Below are positions 4,727 through 62,411 of a stretch of DNA of 64,000 nt, one piece after another (the stretch's first letter is position 1; each line of letters starts with the position of its first letter). This stretch comes from an uncultured Methanosarcinales archaeon (GTDB lineage Archaea > Nanobdellota > Nanobdellia > Woesearchaeales > GW2011-AR9), in assembly GCA_964510085.1 (NCBI GenBank), contig CAZEAB010000002.1:35567-99566 (forward strand), written 5' to 3'. The position numbers and the translations under genes are program-made. The notes below the pieces were generated by a model that saw nothing but the letters and a program-made list of their open reading frames with translations, was not told where the DNA came from and did not search any database.

Positions 4727-5569
4727 ATGACTGATAATGCAGAACTACGAAAAGAATTTGAAGGAAAAAGGAAAGAATTACACTCACTACTTTCTAAAAT
4801 AAAATCAATTAATACTGAGAAGGAAGATATTTATCGACAAATCCGTTCTATTCGAGATAAAATAAAAGATCGTTCTCTCAAAATTCAAACATACAAAGAA
4901 GAACGTGATTCTCTTACAAAAGAAGTAAAAGGCCTTAAGAAAGAGAGAGAGAAACTAAACCTAGATGTTAAACAGAAAGCATCAACAAAAAAAGAAGTAA
5001 CCGAAAGAACTCCATATACTCCAAGAGCAAATCCTGGTAGAATTAAAGCAGAGATCCGTAATTTAGAAGAAAAAATAGAAACCGAAGTAATGCCATTTAA
5101 CAAAGAACAACAATTACGTAAACAAATCAAAGAATTACAATCACAACTTAAAGAAATTGAGAAACACAATAAGGCAGTAAGTGAACAGAAATCTTCATCA
5201 TCTGACTTTGCAAAAGTACGAAAACAAGCACAAGAATCGCATAAACTCGTACAAGAAAAAGCACAAGCATCTCAAGAGAAGCACGAAAGTATGAATAAAT
5301 TGTATGAAGAAATACGAAAATATCGTGATGAAGAAAAACCTCTTGCACAAAAATATCTTGAAATGAAAAAAGAGTATTTGGCACTTAAAAAAACAGTAGA
5401 AGAATTACAAGCTCGTGTAAAAGAATTAAGCGAATTATTTAAAGACACAGATACTAAAAACTATAAACAAAGAGTCAAAGAAAAAACAGCTGAAGTTTCT
5501 GAAAAAATCAAGAAAGGAAAGAAGCTTAGTACTGAAGATATTCTAGCGTTTCAAGCGAGTAAGGATTAG
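4727..5569 (+). CDS. K/E-rich coiled-coil protein, hypothetical
   Basis: 280 aa. Heptad-like charged repeats run through the whole protein. No catalytic motif was found. Confidence 0.4.
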   Translation: MTDNAELRKEFEGKRKELHSLLSKIKSINTEKEDIYRQIRSIRDKIKDRSLKIQTYKEERDSLTKEVKGLKKEREKLNLDVKQKASTKKEVTERTPYTPRANPGRIKAEIRNLEEKIETEVMPFNKEQQLRKQIKELQSQLKEIEKHNKAVSEQKSSSSDFAKVRKQAQESHKLVQEKAQASQEKHESMNKLYEEIRKYRDEEKPLAQKYLEMKKEYLALKKTVEELQARVKELSELFKDTDTKNYKQRVKEKTAEVSEKIKKGKKLSTEDILAFQASKD

Positions 5570-8026: not shown

Positions 8027-8428
8027 TTATACATTTCTTCCTAAACCCATCAAAGCAGTTAAACCGCCAGCAAACATAGCTCCATATTCTGCAGTTTGAT
8101 AATTAGTTGCGTGATTTAATGTATCTCCAATACTCTGAACAAAATTAATACCACCCTGATAATCGCCAACAGCGTGACCTACAACGCCTCCAAGAATGGA
8201 CGCTAAACCAACTTTAGCCCAAGTTCGAGCCATTCTATTTGGAACTCTATTCATCTGTTGTGCAGCATAAGAAACAGCTCCAGTTGTTCCAAGAACGTCT
8301 GCAGCTAAATGTGCATTCTCTCCAATAGAGGGATTAACTTCTCCAGCAACGTACGCAGCTAATTGTGATAAACCTACAACTATCCCACCTACAACTAAAG
8401 AATTAACACCTGGATTTCCTTGTGACAT
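8027..8428 (-). CDS. Gly/Ala-rich glycine-zipper protein, paralog B; hypothetical
   Basis: 133 aa. It shares the VGHAVGDYQGG…SIGDTLNHATN block with the upstream paralog and is 1 nt downstream of it. Local GC is higher than in the surroundings. Confidence 0.4.
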   Translation of the reverse strand: MSQGNPGVNSLVVGGIVVGLSQLAAYVAGEVNPSIGENAHLAADVLGTTGAVSYAAQQMNRVPNRMARTWAKVGLASILGGVVGHAVGDYQGGINFVQSIGDTLNHATNYQTAEYGAMFAGGLTALMGLGRNV

Positions 8429-8429
8429 T

Positions 8430-8906
8430 TTATGGCCCCGGTATTGGTGGAGTTGTTCCTCTCCAACTTTGATACGCCCACTTTGCTGGTAATGCTAATC
8501 CACCCGCAATTGCACTTGCAGCAGTTGTATGATCTTCAGTAACTGCATTAGTTACATCTGCAATACTGGTCAATGTATCAACGGATCCATCATATCCTCC
8601 AACAGTATGTCCTACTAATGCCGCTAATGCTGCTGAACCAAGACACAATACTGCATCTCTTACTCTATGCCAATCATTGTCAGTTCTCGGACCGACTTGT
8701 GATAAAGCATAACCAACACCTACTGCTGGTGCTGCTACATCTGTACCATAATCTACAAAATCAGCAATGCTTGGATCCCCAATAACATTTGAAGTAATTC
8801 TACCTGCTAATTTAATGCCACCATAAGCCAAAGCTCCTAAAACTGGACCTCGTAAATCTCTTGTATCTCGTACAGCTTCTGCTGCATTTCTAATATAGTT
8901 TCTCAT
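8430..8906 (-). CDS. Gly/Ala-rich glycine-zipper protein, paralog A; hypothetical
   Basis: 158 aa. The homologous segment is VGHTVGGYDGSVDTLTSIADVTNAVT. It forms a tandem pair with 8027..8428. Confidence 0.4.
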   Translation of the reverse strand: MRNYIRNAAEAVRDTRDLRGPVLGALAYGGIKLAGRITSNVIGDPSIADFVDYGTDVAAPAVGVGYALSQVGPRTDNDWHRVRDAVLCLGSAALAALVGHTVGGYDGSVDTLTSIADVTNAVTEDHTTAASAIAGGLALPAKWAYQSWRGTTPPIPGP

Positions 8907-9985: not shown

Positions 9986-11629
9986 TTGGACTTAGAGAGA
10001 GAAATCAAAGATATTGGGAGATTTAAGGAGATTCTTAAAGTATTTTTTGAAGAAGGTCTAGGCCATTATATAACTCATTTTAGAGAACACTTACCTTGGC
10101 ATCATCGAGTAAAAGCCCATTTAAGTAAAAATAAACGAACTGCTGCAGCACTACGACGTTCTTTTGAAAGACTTGGACCAACGTTTGTAAAACTCGGCCA
10201 ACTCCTCTCATTACGAGCAGATTTAGTTCCAAGAGAATTCACAGAAGAACTCTCAAAGTTACAAGATGAAGTCCCTTCATTTAGTTATGCAAAAGCAAAA
10301 AAGATTGTAGAAGGAGAGTTAGGTAAACCAATAAATACAGTTTTCAAATCGTTTGATAAAAAACCATACGCATCAGCTTCAATAGCGCAAGTACATAAAG
10401 CAGTTCTTAAGAATGGAAAGAAAGTAGCAGTCAAAGTACAAAGACCAAACGTGAGCGAGATAATAAATGAAGATCTTGACATATTATTCTTCATAGCAAA
10501 ACATCTTGAAGAGAGATTCCCAACAGTAAAAGATTATCATCCCGTAGATGTTATCAAAGAATTTGCAATATGGACACGAAAAGAACTTAACTTCAACATA
10601 GAAGCACGTCATGCAGAAAGAATCAAAGAAGAGATGCAAGATAATCCCAACATAAAAATTCCTGACATATATGAAGACCTTACCTCACATCGTGTGATGG
10701 TAATGGAGTTTATTGATGGTGTAAACATAGATGATGTAGAAGGTCTTAAAAAACAGAGACTAAACAAAAAGAAAATAGCAGAAAATTATTTTCTTGCGAT
10801 TCTCGAACAAGCACTACTATATGGATTATTTCATGCAGACCCACATCCCGCAAATATATTCATACAACGAGATGGAAAAATAGTATTTCTTGATTACGGG
10901 ATTGTTGGAGAAGTATCTGAAAAAGATAGAACAACGGTTATGGAATTTATATCTTCAATTCCAGAAAAGAATGCCGATAAAAGTATTGACTTAATTCTTA
11001 AACTAGCAAAATCTACTGACGAAGAAAAATTGCCTCTATTTAAACAGCACGTACATGATATTTTACAGGAAGTCTATTTCCATTCTGTAAAACAAGCAGG
11101 TGTTGGAAAAGGATTCTATGAAATTATATCAACCGGTGCTAAATATGGCATAATTTTCAAACCAGAACATGTATTGATGGCAAAAGCAATATATCAAGCA
11201 GAAGCAATTGTAATGGATTTATATCCTTCATTTAAATTGGCAAAAGGATTAAAAGATTTTGAAAAAGATTACATCAAAGAACAACTTTCACCAATCAGAA
11301 TAGCACGGAAATTAAAAAAGCAAATTATTAACCACAAAGAATTACTGCTAGAGTTACCAGAACGAATACAACATATCATTGATCGATTAGAAAATCCACC
11401 AAAACAACATTGTGAAAAAGAACATCTTGTAGAAATTGAACATAGGATGCACGAATTGTCTAACCAGAAAAATGTGGGATTTGCAGTAATAGTTTTATCA
11501 ATTGCAACTTTATTCTTTTTTTATGCAGAAGGAAAGACACACATATTTGGAATAGCAATAAGCACATATCTTATCATCGCAACATTTATTACTGTAATAT
11601 ATTTACTAATACACAAAAGGAGGCATTAA
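9986..11629 (+). CDS. ABC1/UbiB-family atypical protein kinase with C-terminal TM segments
   Basis: 547 aa. It has the ADCK-type kinase core (…AQVHKAVLKNGKKVAVKVQRP…FHADPHPANIFI…DYG) and a hydrophobic C-terminus. Confidence 0.8.
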   Translation: MDLEREIKDIGRFKEILKVFFEEGLGHYITHFREHLPWHHRVKAHLSKNKRTAAALRRSFERLGPTFVKLGQLLSLRADLVPREFTEELSKLQDEVPSFSYAKAKKIVEGELGKPINTVFKSFDKKPYASASIAQVHKAVLKNGKKVAVKVQRPNVSEIINEDLDILFFIAKHLEERFPTVKDYHPVDVIKEFAIWTRKELNFNIEARHAERIKEEMQDNPNIKIPDIYEDLTSHRVMVMEFIDGVNIDDVEGLKKQRLNKKKIAENYFLAILEQALLYGLFHADPHPANIFIQRDGKIVFLDYGIVGEVSEKDRTTVMEFISSIPEKNADKSIDLILKLAKSTDEEKLPLFKQHVHDILQEVYFHSVKQAGVGKGFYEIISTGAKYGIIFKPEHVLMAKAIYQAEAIVMDLYPSFKLAKGLKDFEKDYIKEQLSPIRIARKLKKQIINHKELLLELPERIQHIIDRLENPPKQHCEKEHLVEIEHRMHELSNQKNVGFAVIVLSIATLFFFYAEGKTHIFGIAISTYLIIATFITVIYLLIHKRRH

Positions 11630-13321: not shown

Positions 13322-13451
13322 TGCCCCCGCCGAGATTTTCGCAACCAAAAGGTTATTTGAACTCGGGACCTCCAGCTTGCCAAGCGTACTACAGCCGTAA
13401 CTGCAGCATCATATAAGACTGGCGCTCTAGACCAGACTGAGCTATGGGGGC
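13322..13451 (-). tRNA. tRNA-Ile (encoded anticodon TAT) with two putative introns, at 37/38 (~34 nt) and in the T-loop at 59/60 (~20 nt)
   Basis: Hand-folded. The acceptor stem is GCCCCCA/CGGGGGC. The D-arm GCTC-AGTCTGGTCTA-GAGC is of Ile/Met type. The anticodon stem CCAGT/GCTGG is only formed after removing 34 nt, leaving loop CTTATAA. The T-arm CCGAG-TTCAAA[20 nt]T-CTCGG is split by an insert. Confidence 0.55.
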
Positions 13452-13586
13452 GTAATTCAACTAATAACGGCTTCTCTTTTTAAATATTCTCTCTAAACAC
13501 CTCTGTAACTCCTATTAAGTGGCACAAAATAGAAACATTTATATATGTCACCCTGTAGTAAATACATTCAGGGCACAAAAACGGCC

Positions 13587-19399: not shown

Positions 19400-19863
19400 T
19401 CCTCTTCTCCCTTCTTCATGGGATCAATCAAAAATTTTCCCTCTAGAAGAATATTCTGTCCAATCAATAAAGGATATGTCATATGGCTTCTATCAGCAAG
19501 TGTAAATTCTTCTTCAATTTCAAGACCATTAATTATAATTTTTGCTTTTACGATTGGTCTCTTTCCAATACCTGAAGCAGACTTCACAACTTTAGATCGT
19601 GTAATTGGTCCTAATTCTAGCTTTGCAGCTACATTTAAATCAATAGAAGATGCAGTAGCTCCTGAGTCTATCCGTGCTAATACTTCTTCTCTTTCTTCAT
19701 TGTTACCTATGACGGTAACAGGTTCTGTTAAACCTAATATTGGTCTTTCGTCCATTTTATATACACTTGTGGAAGGGCGTTTATAAGCTTTGCTATGGTG
19801 TATTTTAAGCTTAAAAAAGGAATGAGCAGCGTCAATTTGTGAACGATTTTTAGATAAAAACAT
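19396..19863 (-). CDS. RimK-associated retropepsin-like aspartic protease (PF05618-type 'ATP-dependent zinc protease' family)
   Basis: 155 aa with a D-S-G-A motif (ARIDSGATASSIDL). It has a 4-nt overlap with the rimK-like gene, the usual arrangement of this pair. Confidence 0.6.
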   Translation of the reverse strand: MFLSKNRSQIDAAHSFFKLKIHHSKAYKRPSTSVYKMDERPILGLTEPVTVIGNNEEREEVLARIDSGATASSIDLNVAAKLELGPITRSKVVKSASGIGKRPIVKAKIIINGLEIEEEFTLADRSHMTYPLLIGQNILLEGKFLIDPMKKGEEE

Positions 19864-19870
19864 TTATTGC

Positions 19871-19905
19871 CTCAGGGGGAGGGCCCCTACGGGGATGGGG
19901 CAGTG
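19871..19905. other. GC-rich hairpin element in the divergent promoter region upstream of tRNA-Glu
   Basis: 'ctcagggggagggcccctacggggatggggcag' is a strong GC island in AT-rich DNA. It folds GCCCC-tac-GGGG and partly resembles the tRNA-Glu 5' end (gcccctgtgg). Confidence 0.3.
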
Positions 19906-19989
19906 CAATGTATCTATATGAAAAGTGAACCCGACTCTGCTCACAAATTAAGAAACATTTTTAAAGAGATTACCTTTTGGATTGAGTAA

Positions 19990-20108
19990 GCCCCTGTGGT
20001 GTAGTCCGGACAAATTCAAACACTGGATTCACAGGGTTTGTCTTTTGGGATAAACTATCATTCTGCCCTTTCGAGGCAGCGACCCGGGTTCAAATCCCGG
20101 CGGGGGCG
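19990..20108 (+). tRNA. tRNA-Glu (anticodon TTC) with a ~44 nt non-canonical intron in the D-arm (after ~position 21)
   Basis: Hand-folded. The acceptor stem is GCCCCTG/CGGGGGC. The D-arm GTGT-AGTCCGGACAA…TCAT matches the archaeal Glu type only after removing 44 nt. The anticodon arm is CTGCC-CTTTCGA-GGCAG and the T-arm is CCGGG-TTCAAAT-CCCGG. Confidence 0.6.
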
Positions 20109-20154
20109 CTTTTCTTTCCACAACTATTATATACATTAATACATTCTAACAAGC

Positions 20155-37012: not shown

Positions 37013-37145
37013 TGTGGACGGCAGGGTTTGAACCTGCGTAGGCACTAAGCCACTGGGTCCTAAGCATAGCCAGGAAACTCAAGTGAGAATCCTTCCAGCC
37101 CGTTTATATGGCTCCCAGACGGAAGTGACCACTCCGGCACGTCCA
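37013..37145 (-). tRNA. tRNA-Leu (anticodon TAG) with a ~49 nt intron at a non-canonical site in the 5' side of the anticodon stem (30/31–31/32)
   Basis: Hand-folded. The acceptor stem is GTGGACG/CGTCCAC. The anticodon arm CTGGG-CTTAGGA-CCCAG forms only after removing 49 nt. The long variable arm (TGGCTTAGTGCCTAC) is of Leu type and the T-arm is GCAGG-TTCAAAC-CCTGC. Confidence 0.5.
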
Positions 37146-37287
37146 CGTGAAACATGGACTGACGGTTCCGAAAATCTAAGATTTTAGTTACCGGCACGTC
37201 CACGTAAAGAGAATAAAGCAGTGACCTCTTTAAAAACATTTCTACATTTTCATAAACTTTAAAAGAGGACCATACACAAACACCAAT

Positions 37288-42117: not shown

Positions 42118-42195
42118 TGTAGTGGTTAACTCAAATTTTAAAATAATCAATCCTCATTTTAAAGACGAAACATTTAAATAAATGTAGTGGTTAAC
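42116..42195 (+). repeat. Two copies of a 15-bp direct repeat (aatgtagtggttaac) upstream of fic
   Basis: Copies lie at 42116..42130 and 42181..42195. Each contains the GTTAAC palindrome. The second copy ends 8 nt before the fic ATG. Confidence 0.6.
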
Positions 42196-42202
42196 ATAAT
42201 AA

Positions 42203-43123
42203 ATGGTTAGCATACTCACTAAAAAAATAAAGAATAATGACTATCTCTACTTAGTTACATCTATCCGGAAAGGAAAAAAAATACAACAAAAAACAATCAA
42301 ATATATTGGAAAAAAGAGACCCATACCCAAAGAAGAATTTACATGCATGGAACTTTCTTACGAAAACAAAGATTGGATTCTTAATGAGATGTGCGATAAA
42401 CTTTCTTATACAAAGCACGAAGATCTAAAAGTGGCATCTAACAACTATAAAAAATACTTTTTAACCTTATCAAAAACAGCAAAAGAAAAGGAAGAAGAGA
42501 AATTCCTTGGCAAATTTATTGCTAATAGTAATGCATTGGAAGGCTCTACATTAACTGCAAAAGAAACAACAGATTTTCTATTTAATGATATTGTTCCATT
42601 ACATCACTCTAAAAAAGAATTGTACATGGCTACTAATATGTTAGAAGCATGGAATTATATAAAATCTAACTACAAAAAATTTCCTACTCATAAAGACTTA
42701 AAAGAATTACATGAAAGGGTAAATCGAAACATTGAAACGGAAGATTCTCTTGGAAAATACAAAAAAGTACAGAATTATATTGGGGATATTCACACCACCT
42801 CTTTCTTATTTGTAGAAGAGAAAATGGAACAACTTTTACAATGGATAAAAGACGCTTTTCGAAAAATAAACGATTTTGAAGTTGCTTTTCAGTCTCATGC
42901 TCAGTTTGAGATAATTCATCCTTTCATTGATGGGAATGGACGAGTTGGCAGAATTTTAATAAACTGGATATTACTACATAAAAATCTTCAACCTCTAGCA
43001 ATCCCAATAAAAAAGAAAGCCGAATACATTATTGCTCTAGAAAATTCTCGTAGAGAAAAAGTTGAAGCTATTAGTGAATTTTGTTACAAAAGTTACCTTG
43101 AACAATATAGCTTTATGAACTAA
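42203..43123 (+). CDS. fic: Fic-family protein (class II, with an intramolecular inhibitory helix)
   Basis: It has the Fic motif HPFIDGNGRVGR and an N-terminal SxxxEG inhibitory motif (SNALEG). Confidence 0.85.
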   Translation: MVSILTKKIKNNDYLYLVTSIRKGKKIQQKTIKYIGKKRPIPKEEFTCMELSYENKDWILNEMCDKLSYTKHEDLKVASNNYKKYFLTLSKTAKEKEEEKFLGKFIANSNALEGSTLTAKETTDFLFNDIVPLHHSKKELYMATNMLEAWNYIKSNYKKFPTHKDLKELHERVNRNIETEDSLGKYKKVQNYIGDIHTTSFLFVEEKMEQLLQWIKDAFRKINDFEVAFQSHAQFEIIHPFIDGNGRVGRILINWILLHKNLQPLAIPIKKKAEYIIALENSRREKVEAISEFCYKSYLEQYSFMN

Positions 43124-43186: not shown

Positions 43187-44527
43187 TCACATGCCAGGAA
43201 TTCTTCCTTTCATCTTCTTCATCATTTTATTCATGTCCTTCTCGCCTTTAAACATTTTCATCATTTTCTTACTCTGACGATACTGCTTAAGCAACTCACG
43301 AATCTGACCAACACCTAATCCAGAACCAGACGCAATTCTATCAATTCTCTCAGCATTAATAACATCGGGCTCTTCCAATTCCTGTTGAGTCATACTATCC
43401 ATAGCAAATTTCCATTTTCCTAACTTCTCTTCCTGGACATTCAACATATCTTTTGGCATCTTTAATTGACCCATACCGGGAATCATTTCCATAATCTTAC
43501 CAAAAGAACCCATCTTCTTCATAGCACTCATCTGCTCATATAAATCAACTAAATTAAAATCACCCTTCAAAAATTTCTCCTGCATATCAGCAGCAGATTC
43601 CTCACTAATTACCTCTTTAGCCTTCTCAAGTAATGTCTCAATATCCCCCATACCTAACAATCTACCAACAAATCGTTCCGGATGGAAGACTTCTAAATCC
43701 TCAACCTTTTCACCAATTCCAATAAACGAAATTTTTGCGTCAGTAACAGCACATGCAGATAACGCACCACCACCTTTAGCCGTCCCCTCTAATTTTGTAA
43801 CAACAACACCAGTAACACCACACGTATCGTGAAATGCCTGTGCTTGCTTCTGAGCTGCCTGACCAATGTCGGCAGAAATAACTAACAACTTTTCATCAGC
43901 TTGTACAGCATTATGTATTTGTGTTAATTCATCAATTAACTCATCTGATAACGCATCTCTTCCAGCTGTATCTACAATAACTACATCATACCCTGGCAAT
44001 TTATCTTCAAAAGCTGCATAAATTGAAACAGGGTCTTTCTCTCCTTTAATACCCAAGAAATCAACACCAACGGACTCAGCCAACATCTTCAATTGGTCAT
44101 ATGCAGCAGGCCTCCATGTGTCAGTAGCCATTACCGCAACTTTAAATCCACGCTTTTTGTAATACTTTGCTAATTTCCCAGTAGTTGTTGTCTTACCACT
44201 TCCAAACAAACCAACCATCATAATCTTCGTCGGCTTCTTTTCAACCTTAATCTCATACGCTTCCTTCCCTAAGAAATTTGTCAATTCTTCATATACAATC
44301 TTAACCAAATATTCTCGTTGTGTAATCCCGGTAGGAGATTTTTCCTTAGCTCGTTCTTTTATCTTAGAAGTTAACTCAAACACCAGTTTAACATTCGTAT
44401 CTGACTGCAATAGTGCTCTTTGAATATCTTTAACAAGTTCATTAATCAGCTTTTCATCTACAAAAACCGACTTCGTAATCTTCTGTAACGTGTTCTTTAA
44501 CGAATCACCGAGCTTGTCAAGTACCAT
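43187..44527 (-). CDS. srp54: Signal recognition particle protein SRP54
   Basis: It has N, G (GLFGSGKTTT, DTAGR) and M domains, with a Met-rich C-terminus. Confidence 0.9.
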   Translation of the reverse strand: MVLDKLGDSLKNTLQKITKSVFVDEKLINELVKDIQRALLQSDTNVKLVFELTSKIKERAKEKSPTGITQREYLVKIVYEELTNFLGKEAYEIKVEKKPTKIMMVGLFGSGKTTTTGKLAKYYKKRGFKVAVMATDTWRPAAYDQLKMLAESVGVDFLGIKGEKDPVSIYAAFEDKLPGYDVVIVDTAGRDALSDELIDELTQIHNAVQADEKLLVISADIGQAAQKQAQAFHDTCGVTGVVVTKLEGTAKGGGALSACAVTDAKISFIGIGEKVEDLEVFHPERFVGRLLGMGDIETLLEKAKEVISEESAADMQEKFLKGDFNLVDLYEQMSAMKKMGSFGKIMEMIPGMGQLKMPKDMLNVQEEKLGKWKFAMDSMTQQELEEPDVINAERIDRIASGSGLGVGQIRELLKQYRQSKKMMKMFKGEKDMNKMMKKMKGRIPGM

Positions 44528-44564
44528 TGTTGTATAAGAATATAGACGCTATTTAAATGTTATC

Positions 44565-44590
44565 CTAAATAAAGAGAATACTTTATTTAG
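44565..44590. other. Perfect 10-bp inverted repeat (ctaaataaag-N6-ctttatttag)
   Basis: A hairpin lies in the intergenic region between the 223-aa gene stop and the srp54 start. It may be a terminator or operator. Confidence 0.3.
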
Positions 44591-44624
44591 ATCTTAAAAA
44601 AGCATTTTTTTATGATTTATTGAT

Positions 44625-45296
44625 TTATACCCTAAGCGCATGCGGAAATAATCTAATATATTCGGAACCAGAAAGTCCAGTAGCCCTCATAACATCTTCA
44701 ACAGGAATATTAATCTTTGGCAAACCTAAAACGCCAGCCAAATCTCGTTGTTTAATACTTCTTCGCAAGATTAATTCATCAACAGAAGCCCCATAATTTG
44801 CGGCTGTTTCCTGAATTCCATTATCAGCCATCTCATCAAGAATCACATCTCGTCTTGGTAGTCTATCTTCTAACGAAAAAGGTTCAGATGCTCCATTACC
44901 CTTCACACCATCTTGTTTCTTAGCAGATTTCTTTTTTCTTCTTCTAGATTTCTTTTTAGGTTTGTTCCCAGAAATTTCATACGTATCTCGTAGAAATCCT
45001 TCCGGAACATGATATTTTAAACAAACTTCTTGAATTCCTTCATTTTCAATCTCTGCCAAAATTCGTGGACCTTCTTCCTGAATTTGAGCATATGTCTTAA
45101 TACCTAATGTTCTCTTCATACCTCTTGGTGACATCTGATATTTGAATAAAGCGGTAGCAGCACAATACCTCTCCAATAATGCTTCAACATCTTCTTTAGG
45201 ATCTTCAGAAAATGTTGGAGGCCGTGAGTAGAAAGTGTTATGATACTCACTCATATCTAAACGAAAGCTCTGTACTTGTTCATCTCTTATTGCCAT
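44625..45296 (-). CDS. Hypothetical DNA-binding-like protein with a central basic linker and a C-terminal HTH-like segment
   Basis: 223 aa. It has a KKKSRRRKKKSAKK linker and a C-terminal …AANYGASVDELILRRSIKQRDLAGVLG… segment resembling a sigma-r4/terminase-like HTH. GC is higher than in neighbouring genes. Confidence 0.35.
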   Translation of the reverse strand: MAIRDEQVQSFRLDMSEYHNTFYSRPPTFSEDPKEDVEALLERYCAATALFKYQMSPRGMKRTLGIKTYAQIQEEGPRILAEIENEGIQEVCLKYHVPEGFLRDTYEISGNKPKKKSRRRKKKSAKKQDGVKGNGASEPFSLEDRLPRRDVILDEMADNGIQETAANYGASVDELILRRSIKQRDLAGVLGLPKINIPVEDVMRATGLSGSEYIRLFPHALRV

Positions 45297-45349
45297 AATA
45301 ACCTAAAAATAACCACCTTATAAAAAGATTATCACCAAAAAGTGAGGAA

Positions 45350-45730
45350 TTAAAAAAATATTAAAATAAACTGTACTATCACAACAATAAAACTACCTAT
45401 ATGAAGATTACTTGTTAATTTTTTGCCAATTGGAATACCCATGTACTGCAACTGTTCATGAATATACGCATGTCCAACATTCTTCTCATCATCTCGAGCA
45501 TATCCACGTAAATCCTGCATCCAAGTAGTTAACGGACAAATTGAAGCAACCTTCCCAAACACAACAATCCCCCACATAACTTGCGTTCCTACTAATAAAA
45601 CAGCCCACCAAAATTGAAACACCATTCTCTCCGGCCATACTGATGTAGGAATAAGAAACCATGCCCACCATATGAAAAAGAATGGAGAATGTACAAGGTG
45701 TAAGATATTTAGTTTAGTTATTTTCTTCAT
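45350..45730 (-). CDS. Small polytopic membrane protein, hypothetical
   Basis: 126 aa with Trp-rich TM helices. Confidence 0.4.
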   Translation of the reverse strand: MKKITKLNILHLVHSPFFFIWWAWFLIPTSVWPERMVFQFWWAVLLVGTQVMWGIVVFGKVASICPLTTWMQDLRGYARDDEKNVGHAYIHEQLQYMGIPIGKKLTSNLHIGSFIVVIVQFILIFF

Positions 45731-45809
45731 TTGAGTAAAATTAGCATGATTTATTATAAATATTCTTGAAGGAAATAATCACTTCAGAAAGAAATACTTT
45801 TGTATGTTA

Positions 45810-45867
45810 GGGGCCCTGTCGTAGACGAGCCAGGTACTTCAAGGAAGTACGATCCTGGCGTGCCCCA
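45810..45867 (+). other. tRNA-like GC-rich structured element (acceptor-like stem plus extended hairpin)
   Basis: GGGGCCC…GGGGCAC terminal pairing encloses CCAGG-[GTACTTC-AAG-GAAGTAC]-GAT-CCTGG. The 5' end resembles the adjacent tRNA 5' end (GGGCCTGT). It is too short to be a tRNA. Confidence 0.3.
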
Positions 45868-45908
45868 ATAATACAAAGTAATATGTTTCTGAAGAAAGTT
45901 AAAAAATG

Positions 45909-46048
45909 CGGGCCTGCAGGGACAGTCGTTCCCTAGGGAAATTCGAACCCCGATGAGCAGGTTTCATCTTGTATGAAAACCGAAGCCTACCATTTGATAT
46001 CCTTGCAGCATGTACTGACAGGGATGCTATCCATTACATCACAGGCCC
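45909..46048 (-). tRNA. Candidate tRNA-Arg (anticodon TCG, tentative) with three putative introns (~25/26, 37/38 and 59/60)
   Basis: Hand-folded. The acceptor stem is GGGCCTG/CAGGCCC. The D-arm is ATGT-AATGGATA-GCAT. The anticodon arm GTAGG-CTTCGG[17 nt]A-CCTGC and T-arm CGGGG-TTCGAA[19 nt]T-CCCTG form only after removing inserts of ~32, 17 and 19 nt. Confidence 0.4.
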
Positions 46049-46092
46049 ACAAACAACTAAGAACTTAATTGATTTAAAAAGCTTTCTTATAG

Positions 46093-47046
46093 TTACTCTA
46101 ATAAACGTCTCACAACCATCGTAGCATAACTTCCCTTTCCAAGAACAAAACGTAATTTCACAATATCATCACCCAACTTCTCAACAACTAAATCTTTAAC
46201 ATCAACAAACACATCTCTTAATTCTCCCTCCATACTTAATTCTGGGATTTGTTTAATTATAAAATCTCGATGTGTAATGTTCTCTTTTTTCATAATCTCT
46301 CTTATAATCTCTCTAACGTCTTCAAAAACTAAACTAGAATCAAATCCAACTAATGGAACTTTCTCCCCTACTTTCTCTTTTACAAAAACTAACTTCCCTA
46401 ACTTATACTCAACCTTTTTAACAACATCAAAAGAAGATAAATACCTACTAACACACTCATTCCACAAATAACTTTGATACGCATGCACATAAAACCTCAA
46501 CATTCGCAATGGAATCTTTCTCAAAGCACTAATATAATCATTTTTCACAACAGATAACTCTAACAACTCACACGCTCCCTTAAAATCTTTCTTCACAATC
46601 GCTTTCCCAATCTTCTCATTCTGACCACCAAATCTCTGCTCATCATAATAATTTACAACAAAATCCACTTCTTCAACTTCTCCAGAATAATCTCTCACAA
46701 CAATCTCAAACTTATTACCCTCAAGATCTCCCAACGAAATTGGAATATCTCCAAACCCTTTTAACTTTACAGAAACATTCTCAATATCCAACTTTTCAAT
46801 CTTATCTTTACCAACACTAAAAATGGACATCATCTGCTCTGTGACAGCATGTTTATCTTTTGTACCAGCAAACCCAATTTTCTTTTCGGGAACTCCTACC
46901 TGTCGAGAAATCTGCTTCACAACATCTAACGTATTTCTATTCTTTTTCCGTACAAGAACATATGCATACCTTCCAGACGTAGCAAACTTCACAGTACTAA
47001 TTTCTTTCACAATAAAATCTTCTGGTTTTTGCTTAAGCACATACAT
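46093..47046 (-). CDS. truD: tRNA pseudouridine synthase TruD/Pus7 family
   Basis: It has the N-terminal F-x-V-x-E-I block (EDFIVKEI) and the catalytic GTKDKHAVTEQ motif. The probable start is the Met at 47046 (MYVLKQ). The ORF track extends to 47106. Confidence 0.7.
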   Translation of the reverse strand: MYVLKQKPEDFIVKEISTVKFATSGRYAYVLVRKKNRNTLDVVKQISRQVGVPEKKIGFAGTKDKHAVTEQMMSIFSVGKDKIEKLDIENVSVKLKGFGDIPISLGDLEGNKFEIVVRDYSGEVEEVDFVVNYYDEQRFGGQNEKIGKAIVKKDFKGACELLELSVVKNDYISALRKIPLRMLRFYVHAYQSYLWNECVSRYLSSFDVVKKVEYKLGKLVFVKEKVGEKVPLVGFDSSLVFEDVREIIREIMKKENITHRDFIIKQIPELSMEGELRDVFVDVKDLVVEKLGDDIVKLRFVLGKGSYATMVVRRLLE

Positions 47047-47077
47047 ATTAATCAAAAAACATAGATACAATAAAAAA

Positions 47078-47530
47078 CTATTCCAAAAGATACTCAAAAT
47101 ACACACACTTCACATTCTTAGGATCATCAAAGAACACAACACTCTTACAACTTCTATAAAATTCAAAACCACGACCTTCAGTTTGAAACACTCTGTTTTC
47201 ATTTATTTCAACAGCATTAAATTCCTTCTCTTGACTAATTCCAATCACAAACCCTTTTTTCCCAAACCAAACATGAAACTGAAATGGAAATCCACAATAA
47301 TGGAAAACATTATTACCAGCTTCATTCAAAAAATACGCAACTTCATCACTTTCCTTATAGTGCAACCAATTGTGGTGATCAAAAGTAGTGTTATACCTTA
47401 GATTCAACAAATCAGGTATTGTCCATTTATGTTTATTATACCCCTCTTGATCTTGTATTCGAATAACTTTATACCTATCTAACCCAATTTTCTCAAAACA
47501 AGTACTCAATTTCCTCCCAAAATCAATCAT
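47078..47530 (-). CDS. Hypothetical protein
   Basis: 150 aa ORF with no motif. Confidence 0.3.
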   Translation of the reverse strand: MIDFGRKLSTCFEKIGLDRYKVIRIQDQEGYNKHKWTIPDLLNLRYNTTFDHHNWLHYKESDEVAYFLNEAGNNVFHYCGFPFQFHVWFGKKGFVIGISQEKEFNAVEINENRVFQTEGRGFEFYRSCKSVVFFDDPKNVKCVYFEYLLE

Positions 47531-58758: not shown

Positions 58759-58896
58759 CGGCTCTGACCAGACTTTCGAAAAAGTGAACTTTTTCTAAAT
58801 CATCAAGTACACTTGATACTCGAACTGGTGACCTCGAGGTCGCTGTTGGTTTCCACCACTAACAGCCCCGCGCTCTACCTACTAAGCTACAGAGCC
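58759..58896 (-). tRNA. tRNA-Asn (anticodon GTT) with two putative introns (37/38, ~19 nt; T-loop 59/60, ~46 nt)
   Basis: Hand-folded. The acceptor stem is GGCTCTG/CAGAGCC. The D-arm is GCTT-AGTAGGTA-GAGC. The anticodon arm is CGGGG-CTGTTA[19 nt]A-CCTCG. The T-arm is ACCAG-TTCGAG[46 nt]T-CTGGT. Confidence 0.55.
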
Positions 58897-58976
58897 GCAA
58901 TAGAAGAGCAGAAGATTTAATCATTATAAAGGTTTCCTCAAATTTAGGCGTATCTCGAAATCTTTTCGGACGGAAC

Positions 58977-59237
58977 TTATAGGTGTCTTTTGTAAATATT
59001 TCTTCTATGACTAATAATTCTTACAGCAATTACTTTTTCTTCTTCAATAATATCAACAATTGCTCTGTAATCCCCAGAACGAATTTTATATCCTGGATCT
59101 CCTGAAAGGCTCTCAAGAAAATGTTTTGGATTAGCTTTAGTAGAGTCGACTTTCTTAACAATCCGCGTAGCAATATCTTTAGGTAGTTTACGTAACTCTT
59201 GTAAAGCTTTAGAACGCCACTTAATAACGTAACTCAT
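58977..59237 (-). CDS. RelE/ParE-family type II toxin
   Basis: 86 aa, basic, with RelE-like conserved C-terminal Arg/Tyr (…IISHRRNIYKRHL). It is overlapped by 1 nt by the upstream small ORF. Confidence 0.65.
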   Translation of the reverse strand: MSYVIKWRSKALQELRKLPKDIATRIVKKVDSTKANPKHFLESLSGDPGYKIRSGDYRAIVDIIEEEKVIAVRIISHRRNIYKRHL

Positions 59238-59428
59238 TATGCAAACTCTTTAAGAACTTCTTCATGATCAACATAGTCAGATAATGGTTCTTTTCTAGCA
59301 CTTTCTAAGGCTTTCTTTGCACTTTCGCTTAATTCAAAATCTTCTGTAAGAATATGTGTTATTTTGTTCAATTGAATTTTAACTTCATTAATATCTTTTT
59401 CAAGTTTTTTAAGTGTTACAGTTTCCAT
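59237..59428 (-). CDS. Type II antitoxin (partner of the RelE/ParE toxin)
   Basis: 63 aa acidic helical protein immediately upstream of the toxin and translationally coupled to it. Confidence 0.5.
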   Translation of the reverse strand: METVTLKKLEKDINEVKIQLNKITHILTEDFELSESAKKALESARKEPLSDYVDHEEVLKEFA

Positions 59429-59506
59429 AATTTACAAATATTATACAGAATATATAAATTTATCCAACAAAACCCTTAAAAACAACCTTTCAAAACAATG
59501 AACCAA

Positions 59507-59631
59507 GGACCTGTGGCCCAGTGGATAAGGCGATTCCCTCCTAATACTCAAGTAGAGAGGAATAGATCGGGGGTTCGAAACAGCAGACTGCATTCTCTAT
59601 GCTGTATGCTGCGCAATTCCTCCCAGGTCCG
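59507..59631 (+). tRNA. tRNA-Arg (anticodon CCT) with two putative introns (37/38, ~14 nt; T-loop 59/60, ~38 nt)
   Basis: Hand-folded. The acceptor stem is GGACCTG/CAGGTCC. The anticodon arm is ATTCC-CTCCTA[14 nt]A-GGAAT. The T-arm is GGGGG-TTCGAA[38 nt]T-CCTCC. Confidence 0.55.
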
Positions 59632-61757: not shown

Positions 61758-62144
61758 TTAATACGTTTCAACTTTTATTCCTTTAATTTTGTTAAAATGC
61801 TTCTTGTTTCTGGTAATAATTGTCTTAACTCCTTTACTTAACGCAATACCTGCAATAAGACAATCACAATCATCAATTGTTTCTCCTTTTCTCATTAATG
61901 TACCAGATATTTCGGCAGCCCTAACGATTCCTAAATCATCTAAAGGTAACACTCGTATGTTTGAAAAAAGAAATTCAGTCTTAAGAAACTTTTCTGGAGC
62001 AACATTTTTATGAAATAAACCCACCAAAATTTCAAACATGTTAATTTGGGTAGTCAATAAATCTTCATCCGAGTCTAATATCTTCTGAACTTCTTTTTTA
62101 CCTCGCAATACATCAACTAAAAAAGTTGTATCAAGTAGTTTCAT
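61758..62144 (-). CDS. vapC: PIN-domain ribonuclease VapC (type II toxin)
   Basis: It has the PIN acidic residues (MKLLDTTFLVD…E…D.CD). The start is the Met at 62144. The ORF track extends to 62168. Confidence 0.75.
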   Translation of the reverse strand: MKLLDTTFLVDVLRGKKEVQKILDSDEDLLTTQINMFEILVGLFHKNVAPEKFLKTEFLFSNIRVLPLDDLGIVRAAEISGTLMRKGETIDDCDCLIAGIALSKGVKTIITRNKKHFNKIKGIKVETY

Positions 62145-62382
62145 TAAACAAATTCCTCCTCTCCACAAAACGTTTTTTGTTAGCTTTCCTTCTTAATTCT
62201 ATTGACTTTAAAATTGCATCTCCCTCTTCATTACTTAATATCCCAAAGAAATCACTTAAAGGACGTTTTTTCTCTGTCGAAAGAATTCTTCTAATCTCCT
62301 CGGAAAAACTTTCTCCCTTCTTCTTGTGAGAACTAAGTAACTTGTAGGCATCTTCCATAATCGTTATTGTTTTAGTTGCCAT
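62131..62382 (-). CDS. vapB: VapB-type antitoxin
   Basis: It has a small N-terminal RHH/AbrB-like segment (MATKTITIMEDAYKLL) and overlaps the vapC start. The start is the Met at 62382. The upstream MCMCTCMCM extension is an artefact of the (CA)n repeat. Confidence 0.65.
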   Translation of the reverse strand: MATKTITIMEDAYKLLSSHKKKGESFSEEIRRILSTEKKRPLSDFFGILSNEEGDAILKSIELRRKANKKRFVERRNLFNETT

Positions 62383-62411
62383 ACACATACATGTACACAT
62401 ACACATATATA
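62381..62411. repeat. Short CA/TG-rich microsatellite (atacacatacatgtacacatacacatatata)
   Basis: A simple-sequence tract lies immediately upstream of the vapB start. Confidence 0.6.

Follow-up and report, generated by a model that had tools for sequence, protein, structure and literature searches.

A probable native gene neighbourhood between truD and srp54 of a Woesearchaeal archaeon, with a three-intron tRNA-Arg gene and a lineage-specific palindrome

The DNA between truD and srp54 on a metagenome contig of Woesearchaeota/Nanoarchaeota (DPANN; genome GC 34.5%) is probably a native, inherited gene neighbourhood, with a three-intron tRNA gene, an orphan foldback insertion and a gene, p223, for a protein with transposase-type HTH units, and probably not the remnant of an integrated element. 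The window, that is, the whole stretch of DNA that was analysed, is 64 kb long. The genes of the locus lie on one strand in the order p150, truD, tRNA-Arg(UCG), a small membrane gene, p223 and srp54. The anatomy of the locus, presence and absence among relatives, synteny, composition and single-copy status were observed directly. As we picture it, the neighbourhood would have been inherited vertically within the Woesearchaeota, and 129 nt of extra DNA may have entered the strain lineage between the T6 terminator of the tRNA gene and the promoter of the next gene, both of which would have been left intact.

The conserved anchor of the locus is srp54 (43187..44527, minus strand), which encodes the SRP54 GTPase with matches to Pfam SRP54_N, SRP54 and SRP_SPB and whose orthologs are 67-85% identical across 80 Woesearchaeota/Nanoarchaeota genomes. 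Its syntenic upstream neighbour truD (46093..47106, minus strand) encodes tRNA pseudouridine synthase D and matched PF01142 at 4e-75. The arrangement truD ... tRNA-Arg ... srp54 is conserved in many related loci. The order truD ... srp54 was kept in L009, L083, L020, L026, L031, L034, L047, L050 and L068, and p150 was likewise matched in six of these nine loci. In the nearest relative (L087, L090, L091), whose SRP54 is 92-94% identical, tRNA-Arg is followed by a DUF2784-like gene, a p223 homolog and srp54. The gene content of the slot from tRNA-Arg to srp54 varies among Woesearchaeota, and only more distant relatives differ from the window: no gene is present in L034, where tRNA-Arg lies ~30 nt from srp54, and an NYN-domain gene occupies the slot in other relatives. 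In L083, the place equivalent to that of the window palindrome described below holds 83 nt of inserted, hairpin-rich DNA, and the tRNA 3' end is duplicated there in an att-like manner. Even without an integrated element, the slot shows plasticity.

The tRNA-Arg(UCG) gene (45909..46048, minus strand) contains three introns and was missed in its unspliced form by both ARAGORN and Rfam. The introns are located after the D-arm (intron 1, ~46022-45991, 32 nt), at the canonical position 37/38 (intron 2, ~45979-45963, 17 nt) and in the T-loop (intron 3, ~45940-45922, 19 nt), with boundaries placed to within +/-1-2 nt. After removal of 32, 17 and 19 nt in silico, ARAGORN called a canonical tRNA-Arg(tcg). 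Orthologs of the gene have no intron (L062, L014), two introns (L089) or three introns (L009, L083, L034, L026). The three-intron call, first made by the sequence-only reading, was borne out by the splicing in silico and by these orthologs. Manual inspection of the exon-intron junctions for a bulge-helix-bulge motif gave a central helix for the 37/38 intron alone among the three, with 3 of 4 pairs (CTTC/GATG). Multi-intron archaeal tRNA genes occur in Thermoproteales and in DPANN lineages whose splicing endonucleases have broad specificity (PMC5829648; PMC4090602), and heavily disrupted tRNA genes have been documented in DPANN lineages (PMC5829648). Like members of this class, the tRNA-Arg of the window is interrupted by short inserts behind the D-arm, at 37/38 and within the T-loop whose removal restores a canonical cloverleaf, and its intron number and position differ between close relatives. 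Nothing in it is unusual for the class; its exon-intron junction motifs look relaxed by inspection. The archaeal splicing endonuclease presumably removes the three short introns, as in other DPANN lineages.

A T6 run, read from the sequence, directly follows the tRNA gene (45901..45906, minus strand) and is probably an archaeal terminator; a T-run also follows the tRNA-Arg orthologs in L091 and L089. The next gene (45350..45730, minus strand) encodes a 126-aa hydrophobic membrane protein that is weakly DUF2784-like (PF10861, E 1.3e-3, with 19.3 bits under the 29.7-bit cut-off). Homologs of this protein, 71-77% identical, were found in L089, L090 and L091, each time downstream of tRNA-Arg. Upstream of the gene lies a conserved TATA-like block, CTTCAAGAATATTTATAATAAATC on the minus strand (45748..45771), which aligns with CTTCAATAATATTTATAAAAAAG of L091 (0/1000 shuffles scored as well). 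We infer that this block is the promoter of the 126-aa gene.

Between the terminator and the TATA-like block, the window lineage carries a 129-nt segment (45772..45900) that is missing at the equivalent junction in L091, as seen by alignment, and in L089. It contains a 113-nt imperfect palindrome, or foldback (45782..45894), in which AT-rich 33-nt arms surround a GC-rich core of 58 nt (45810..45867, plus strand; GC 60%). The arms are 76% complementary and make up the strongest inverted repeat of the window. The core consists of a 5-bp closing stem, a 3-bp mini-hairpin and a 12-bp hairpin with a 4-nt bulge. The whole palindrome folds at -43.7 kcal/mol (z -5.25) and the core at -25.3 kcal/mol, with a z of -3.2 on the plus strand (0/200 shuffles as good) and of -1.9 on the minus strand. 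The GC-rich hairpin that had been picked out at 45810-45867 is present and folds better than shuffles, as the core of a larger palindrome. Its likeness to the tRNA, once seen at their 5' ends, was not significant, as 400 of 2000 shuffles aligned as well. The same holds for what the core shares with the neighbouring tRNA or with intron 1 of the latter (CCCTGTC). A second GC-rich hairpin was noted at 19858-19920, beside tRNA-Arg(UCU).

The site of the palindrome is otherwise conserved but polymorphic for its presence. In L091, the tRNA and its T6 run are directly followed by the conserved promoter block, CTTCAATAATATTTATAAAAAAG, and L089 likewise has no palindrome between the tRNA-Arg terminator and the downstream DNA. 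Nor was it found by nhmmer, blastn or a covariance model in 80 more distant relatives, so that the hairpin proved not to be conserved in any of these genomes. Searches of the 80 related loci and of ~17 kb of extra source contig with nhmmer, blastn-short and a single-sequence covariance model returned the element itself only, and so did the covariance model in 905 kb of related DNA. The copy number is 1 in ~81 kb of source contig. Scans of viral contigs with two 20-21-mers of the element gave 0 matches. A metagenome scan with an 18-mer, in a collection that does not include the source contig, gave 22 matches, each attributable to chance and lying in unrelated coding DNA of high GC. The same-strain contigs L001-L006 are identical across the element, core included, and so show no covariation.

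MITEs and foldback elements are non-autonomous inverted-repeat insertions, for example the MITEs of Sulfolobus. The palindrome is most likely a lineage-specific insertion of this non-autonomous foldback (MITE-like) kind, or a locally generated inverted duplication. Like such elements, it is small (113-129 nt), non-coding and intergenic, has long terminal inverted arms and is present or absent between close relatives. It differs from them in lacking a partner IS or transposase and in its GC-rich branched core, which is atypical; the multi-copy hallmark of MITEs is also missing, since the palindrome is single-copy and was not recovered in the viral and metagenome scans. The insert is flanked by TTTCTTCA and TTTCCTTCA, which by inspection are AT-rich and overlap the arm sequence; they are at most suggestive of a target-site duplication. 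A possible homology between the tRNA-proximal arm, which would then be native DNA, and the post-tRNA sequence of L089 hints at a local inverted duplication but is confounded by the shared tRNA end. A gain in the window lineage, by a mode of insertion that is likewise conjectural, would explain the polymorphism, and a loss in the relatives could still do so because the branching of the three closest lineages is unsettled. The palindrome is probably neutral and would have no function.

The p223 gene (44625..45296, minus strand) encodes, as had been noted, a 223-aa protein with a polybasic linker (residues ~110-127); the protein is lineage-restricted and has three HTH_Tnp_1-like units. No match was obtained in Pfam (E<=0.1), NCBIfam or PHROGs, only 8 matches were found among 1.84 billion representatives, and no clear housekeeping homolog emerged from these searches. 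The protein aligned in three units with P0011, a tandem-HTH_Tnp_1 protein (BLASTP E 1e-9), which itself matches PF01527 HTH_Tnp_1 at 3.6e-19, so that the link of p223 to the family is only indirect, via P0011. The AF2 model of the C-domain is all-helical (pLDDT 88) and has no significant PDB or viral fold match; the weak fold matches of p223 are mostly HTH proteins. N-domain homologs were located upstream of srp54 in L062, L020, L115, L087 and L090, with more distant relatives among them. HTH_Tnp_1 (PF01527) is the DNA-binding HTH of IS3-type transposase OrfA proteins. With these, p223 shares the units aligned to P0011 and the all-helical fold model, whereas it falls below every Pfam threshold, has no catalytic transposase domain, and has a polybasic linker and a fixed place beside srp54. 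It is predicted to be a narrow-family nucleic-acid-binding protein composed of transposase-type (HTH_Tnp_1-like) HTH units.

The hairpin, the membrane gene and p223 had together been proposed as a possible degraded element integrated at the 3' end of tRNA-Arg. Integrase-mediated integration at archaeal tRNA genes is known for SSV- and pNOB8-type elements, and like these the block of the window lies immediately 3' of a tRNA gene. The variable slot, the resemblance of L034 to an empty site, the att-like duplicated tRNA 3' end at the tRNA-Arg of L083, and the transposase-type HTH units of p223 with its almost complete lack of homologs all speak for such a remnant. The block was said to be visibly higher in GC than its flanks, but its composition is native. 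The GC of 44601-45800 is 0.346, which is the window median (52nd percentile of 1.2-kb windows) and lower than that of srp54 itself; in 3- and 4-mer distance from the window it ranks at the 18th-25th percentile, and the block is therefore more typical than average. The perfect 10-bp inverted repeat CTAAATAAAG-N6-CTTTATTTAG described as closing the block is present at 44565..44590, in AT-rich intergenic DNA between p223 and srp54, but it is a chance match and the boundary of nothing (first-order Markov simulations of the window yield 1.4 such repeats on average, and 1 was observed). Between srp54 and truD, the ORFs are only p223 and the DUF2784-like gene, in which no integrase or phage family was found in Pfam, NCBIfam or PHROGs. 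A 15-mer of the tRNA 3' end, with <=3 mismatches allowed, occurred in the window only at the tRNA itself, and no att-like direct repeat was present. Close relatives offered no empty site: unlike the SSV- and pNOB8-type elements, the genes are syntenic in relatives, the nearest of which has both in order, and in five lineages srp54 adjoins a member of the p223 N-domain family. Typical composition, a chance repeat, no integrase or att repeat and the synteny of relatives leave an integrated element unsupported; given synteny and composition, such a remnant is largely refuted, and we regard it as improbable. The DNA 3' of the tRNA is variable, as the 129-nt insertion, the slot content and the L083 scar indicate, but it did not turn out to hold an integrated element, and for this reason the headline claim of the sequence-only reading is of little consequence. 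The palindrome alone might be a scar of integration and excision, with a larger element lost from downstream of the tRNA and a remnant of an att site or terminal repeat left behind. Its position immediately behind the tRNA terminator corresponds to that of the L083 insertion, and on the tRNA strand the palindrome ends in ACAGGGCCCC, reminiscent of the tRNA 3' GCAGGCCCG. This resemblance, 7-8 nt long and including an indel, lacks significance; the palindrome is similar neither to viral contigs nor to the L083 insert, and a scar is very unlikely.

Among other explanations of the palindrome, the GC-rich core might be a lineage-specific gene for a small structured RNA, for example a T-arm-less tRNA-like RNA, with an acceptor-like stem and discriminator A, a mini D-arm and a long anticodon-like arm, flanked by AT-rich arms as a processing stem. 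All other intergenic GC islands of the window but one are tRNAs, and a core with 60% GC in a genome of 34.5% GC therefore leaves room for a functional RNA. The significant folds of core and palindrome and the 6/7 acceptor-like pairs followed by A, as read by eye, are consistent with it, and the closing stem, small 5' hairpin and long central hairpin recall tRNAs that lack the T-arm and tRNA-like structures. Unlike these, the core has neither a covariance-model signal nor the architecture of an anticodon loop, and it is not conserved. The Rfam scan proposed earlier gave no family for the hairpin at the gathering threshold over the whole window, and at E<=10 only noise in 45700-46150, such as snoZ118 and Oskar_OES at E 0.3-3. 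The tRNA covariance model (RF00005) did not match the core even at E<=10, ARAGORN found nothing in it with or without introns allowed, and inspection of both strands revealed no T-loop motif. Inspection also spoke against the core as a C/D-box or H/ACA RNA, a K-turn, a bulge-helix-bulge, a split tRNA half or an anticodon with intron, since it has no C/D boxes in register, no sheared G-A pairs, a single 4-nt bulge and no U33 loop. With no clear plus-strand oligo-T terminator, absence from the two closest relatives and from the 905 kb of related DNA, and a similarity to the neighbouring tRNA at chance level, an RNA gene is unlikely. The palindrome might instead act as DNA, as the operator or upstream activating site of a dimeric HTH protein, for instance p223, that controls the transcription unit of membrane gene, p223 and srp54, or as an insulator of this unit from tRNA read-through. 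The TATA-like block is preceded at 10-120 bp by the perfect nested palindromes GCCAGG...CCTGGC and GTACTTC-AAG-GAAGTAC, which would suit such a site, as would the HTH-repeat protein encoded two genes downstream. A relative with an equivalent operon and a p223 homolog has no palindrome at all, and no second copy lies near other genes; we give a regulatory site the same very low probability as an excision scar. The least probable proposal is that the core is a new small mobile or lineage-specific RNA element, tRNA-like but T-arm-less and flanked by a processing stem, that targets the DNA downstream of DPANN tRNA genes. If it were true, the 83-nt insertion of L083 and the hairpin at 19858-19920 would be further instances.

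The palindrome illustrates concretely that an RNA gene need not lie behind every GC-rich hairpin of an AT-rich DPANN genome. Should the palindrome prove to be expressed or mobile, this group would gain its first described small foldback element. The p223 protein represents a narrow family with transposase-like HTH units that persistently adjoins srp54. The locus also provides a validated three-intron tRNA-Arg that standard tools miss, and the 0-3 introns among close Woesearchaeota orthologs document rapid intron turnover in DPANN.

The window is AT-rich (34.5% GC) and derives from a DPANN archaeon. Read along the minus strand, its features are p150, truD (47106..46093), tRNA-Arg (46048..45909), a GC-rich hairpin, the gene of a 126-aa DUF2784-like membrane protein (45730..45350), the gene of p223, a 223-aa protein with a polybasic linker (45296..44625), and srp54 (44527..43187). 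An identical p223 protein is encoded on a JGI metagenome contig of 133 kb (3300007504, Ga0104999_1000095), and near-identical contigs in other samples carry it too. SRP54 showed 67-85% identity to orthologs in 80 MAGs, labelled mostly Woesearchaeota, Nanoarchaeota or Nanoarchaeia, with a few other labels. The compound locus is four things: a multi-intron tRNA, a native gene pair, a chance inverted repeat and an orphan 113-nt palindrome. As judged from the contigs compared, the GC-cored palindrome is peculiar to this lineage, where it forms an insertion that separates the tRNA terminator from the next promoter.

The 58-nt GC-rich hairpin described in the sequence-only reading exists and has a significant plus-strand fold (z −3.2); it forms the centre of a larger structure, the imperfect palindrome at 45782-45894, whose 33-nt arms are AT-rich and 76% complementary. 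The 113-nt palindrome (fold −43.7 kcal/mol, z −5.25) is the strongest local inverted repeat of the 64 kb. The supposed mimicry of the neighbouring tRNA was at chance level, as 400 of 2000 shuffles aligned equally well. An Rfam scan of the hairpin matched no family, and the tRNA model gave no match at E≤10. By inspection, the hairpin had neither the T-loop nor the U33-type anticodon loop of a tRNA, no K-turn or bulge-helix-bulge motif, and no C/D or H/ACA boxes in register.

Proteins homologous to the 126-aa protein (71-77% identity) gave access to short contigs of the closest available relatives. In L091, a contig of the nearest relative, CTTCAATAATATTTATAAAAAAG comes straight after the tRNA-Arg 3' end and its T-run. 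This sequence is the counterpart of the conserved promoter-like block at 45748-45771 in the window, and about 50 nt separate the tRNA from the start of the gene. At the same tRNA-to-gene junction the window has 129 nt (45772-45900) that L091 lacks, and the palindrome lies within them. In another relative, L089, the palindrome is absent and an unrelated 137-aa ORF lies in its place. No further copies turned up when 80 more distant relatives, together with some 17 kb of further sequence from the source contig, were searched with nhmmer, blastn-short and a core-based covariance model; two scans of viral contigs gave no match and one of metagenomes gave chance matches only. Because L091 and L089 lack the palindrome and no further copies were found, it appears to be a lineage-specific, single-copy insertion. 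Contigs of the same strain were identical across the element. The imperfect short direct repeats flanking the insertion (TTTCTTCA / TTTCCTTCA) were unconvincing as a target-site duplication. Since the core is GC-rich and well folded, there is a small probability that it is expressed as a lineage-specific RNA. Most likely, the palindrome has no required function and arose when a foldback or MITE-like element inserted or when local sequence was duplicated in inverted orientation.

The sequence-only reading had joined the hairpin, the membrane protein gene and p223 into a possible degraded integrative element of higher GC, closed by an inverted repeat. The GC content of the gene block between tRNA-Arg and srp54 (44601-45800) was 0.346, the 52nd percentile of 1.2-kb windows; srp54 was richer in GC, and the 3- and 4-mer profiles of the block were nearer the window average than those of most windows. 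The 10-bp inverted repeat (44565-44590) is present and perfect, but it is a chance occurrence rather than a closing element, since the window contains one such repeat and Markov simulations gave 1.4 on average. No repeat of the tRNA 3' end (att site) was found, and neither ORF, 126-aa protein or p223, matched integrase, phage or defence-type families. The nearest relative, whose SRP54 is 92-94% identical, shares the window's order of DUF2784-like gene, p223 homolog (63% identity) and srp54. In contigs L062, L020 and L115, srp54 is preceded by more distant homologs of the N-terminal domain of p223, either directly or at a distance of up to 1.4 kb. Given typical composition, a chance repeat, no att site or integrase, and synteny shared with the nearest relative, the integrated-element remnant was not borne out; these results include two of the three findings that the reading itself had named as counting against it. 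The DUF2784-like gene and p223 are both lineage-restricted and form a native, syntenic pair.

No match to p223 was detected in Pfam, NCBIfam, PHROG or PDB sequences. A search of 5.8 billion clusters returned three homologs and an exhaustive HMMER search of 1.84 billion representatives returned eight. A small family (P0007-P0010) is recognised by the N-terminal domain (residues 11-113), and only the closest relatives also have the polybasic linker and the C-terminal domain. The weakest homolog match, P0011, is a tandem HTH_Tnp_1 array (PF01527, E 3.6e-19) with which three units of p223 align (BLASTP E 1e-9): LLERYCAATALFKYQMS..., ILAEIENEGIQEVCLKYHVPEGFL and ILDEMADNGIQETAANYGASVDELI. AlphaFold2 modelled the C-domain as a confident six-helix bundle (pLDDT 88), for which Foldseek found no significant PDB or viral match; its weak matches were mostly HTH regulators. 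The earlier description of an HTH-like segment is reasonable, and we infer that p223 is a putative nucleic-acid-binding protein. None of PHROGs, PDB and BFVD yielded a significant match for p223, whether to a terminase, an excisionase or anything else. The called 167-aa protein P0003 (L092 91-594) is identical at its C-terminus to the p223 homolog P0001 and has an unrelated N-terminus; the low-coverage contig behind it is probably frameshifted or chimeric.

What lies between tRNA-Arg and srp54 varies across the phylum, so that this slot is plastic. It is empty in L034, holds other small ORFs in L009 and L083, and in L016 (5406-5927), L024 (5452-5958) and L033 (5346-5918) contains an NYN-domain (predicted RNase) protein gene in place of the p223 and DUF2784-like genes. 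Directly after the tRNA-Arg trailer, L083 carries an 83-nt hairpin-rich insertion (4966-5048; compared with L009 at 4940), which terminates in an imperfect repeat of the tRNA 3' end and trailer (GTGCAGGTCCACTTTTATATTTT vs CTGCTGGCCCACTTTTTATTTT). The insertion looks like an att-like integration scar, and its terminal repeat is similar to a tRNA 3' end of the window type (CAGGCCC). The view of the 3' flank of this tRNA as a hot spot finds some support in relatives, but does not extend to the gene block of the window.

Elsewhere in the window there is a second non-tRNA GC-rich intergenic island (19858-19920), in which an AT-rich outer stem encloses a GC-rich hairpin. It precedes the intron-containing tRNA-Arg(TCT) at 19990-20109 by about 70 nt. 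It had no Rfam match, and its fold was only slightly better than those of shuffled sequences (z −1.7). The two unexplained GC islands of the window each adjoin a tRNA-Arg gene. Further GC-rich islands at 13357-13458 (minus strand, reading GCCCCCATAGCTCAGTCTGG...), 58818-58904 (minus) and 59499-59543 (plus) look like candidate intron-containing tRNA genes, and were missed by default ARAGORN, ARAGORN -i and Rfam at the gathering threshold. With introns allowed, ARAGORN called only two tRNAs in the window, 19990-20109 and 37013-37146. The source contig (L119), from a small DPANN genome, encodes two pairs that resemble toxin-antitoxin systems, a ParE_toxin next to a small ORF (8083-8534; window ~58978-59429) and PIN with VapB (10864-11488; window ~61759-62383). 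The same-strain contigs L004/L005 differ from L001 (12999-13136) by about 38 substitutions within about 140 nt and are otherwise 100% identical; the patch covers the N-terminus of a Fic-domain gene and its upstream region (window ~42160-42300, 5' end of the Fic gene), which points to localized recombination or diversification.

The unspliced tRNA-Arg gene was called by neither ARAGORN nor Rfam. Removal of three inserts, one of 32 nt following the D-arm, one of 17 nt at the canonical 37/38 site and one of 19 nt within the T-loop, yielded a sequence that ARAGORN called tRNA-Arg(tcg), which bears out the proposed three-intron gene. Heavy tRNA disruption has been described in DPANN (PMC5829648), and the multi-intron tRNA-Arg here is real and of a known kind. 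Many relatives carry an orthologous tRNA-Arg(UCG) upstream of srp54 with differing intron counts: none in L062 (2115-2188) and L014, two in L089 (79-197), and three in L009 (4785-4932), L083, L034 (4449-4596) and L026 (3024-3171). In L062, the real gene (ACATTTGTGGGCCTGTAGCAT) is preceded, 65 nt upstream, by a partial duplicate of the tRNA-Arg leader and 5' end (ACATTTGTGGGTTTGTAGCAT, 2045-2070). Intron sites vary among the orthologs (D-loop or D-arm, 37/38, variable region, T-arm), and the T-arm introns of L091 (tRNA at 1-70) and the window lie on opposite sides of the T-loop. The fact that orthologs carry 0, 2 or 3 introns at differing positions indicates that introns in tRNA-Arg(UCG) are gained and lost rapidly among closely related Woesearchaeota.
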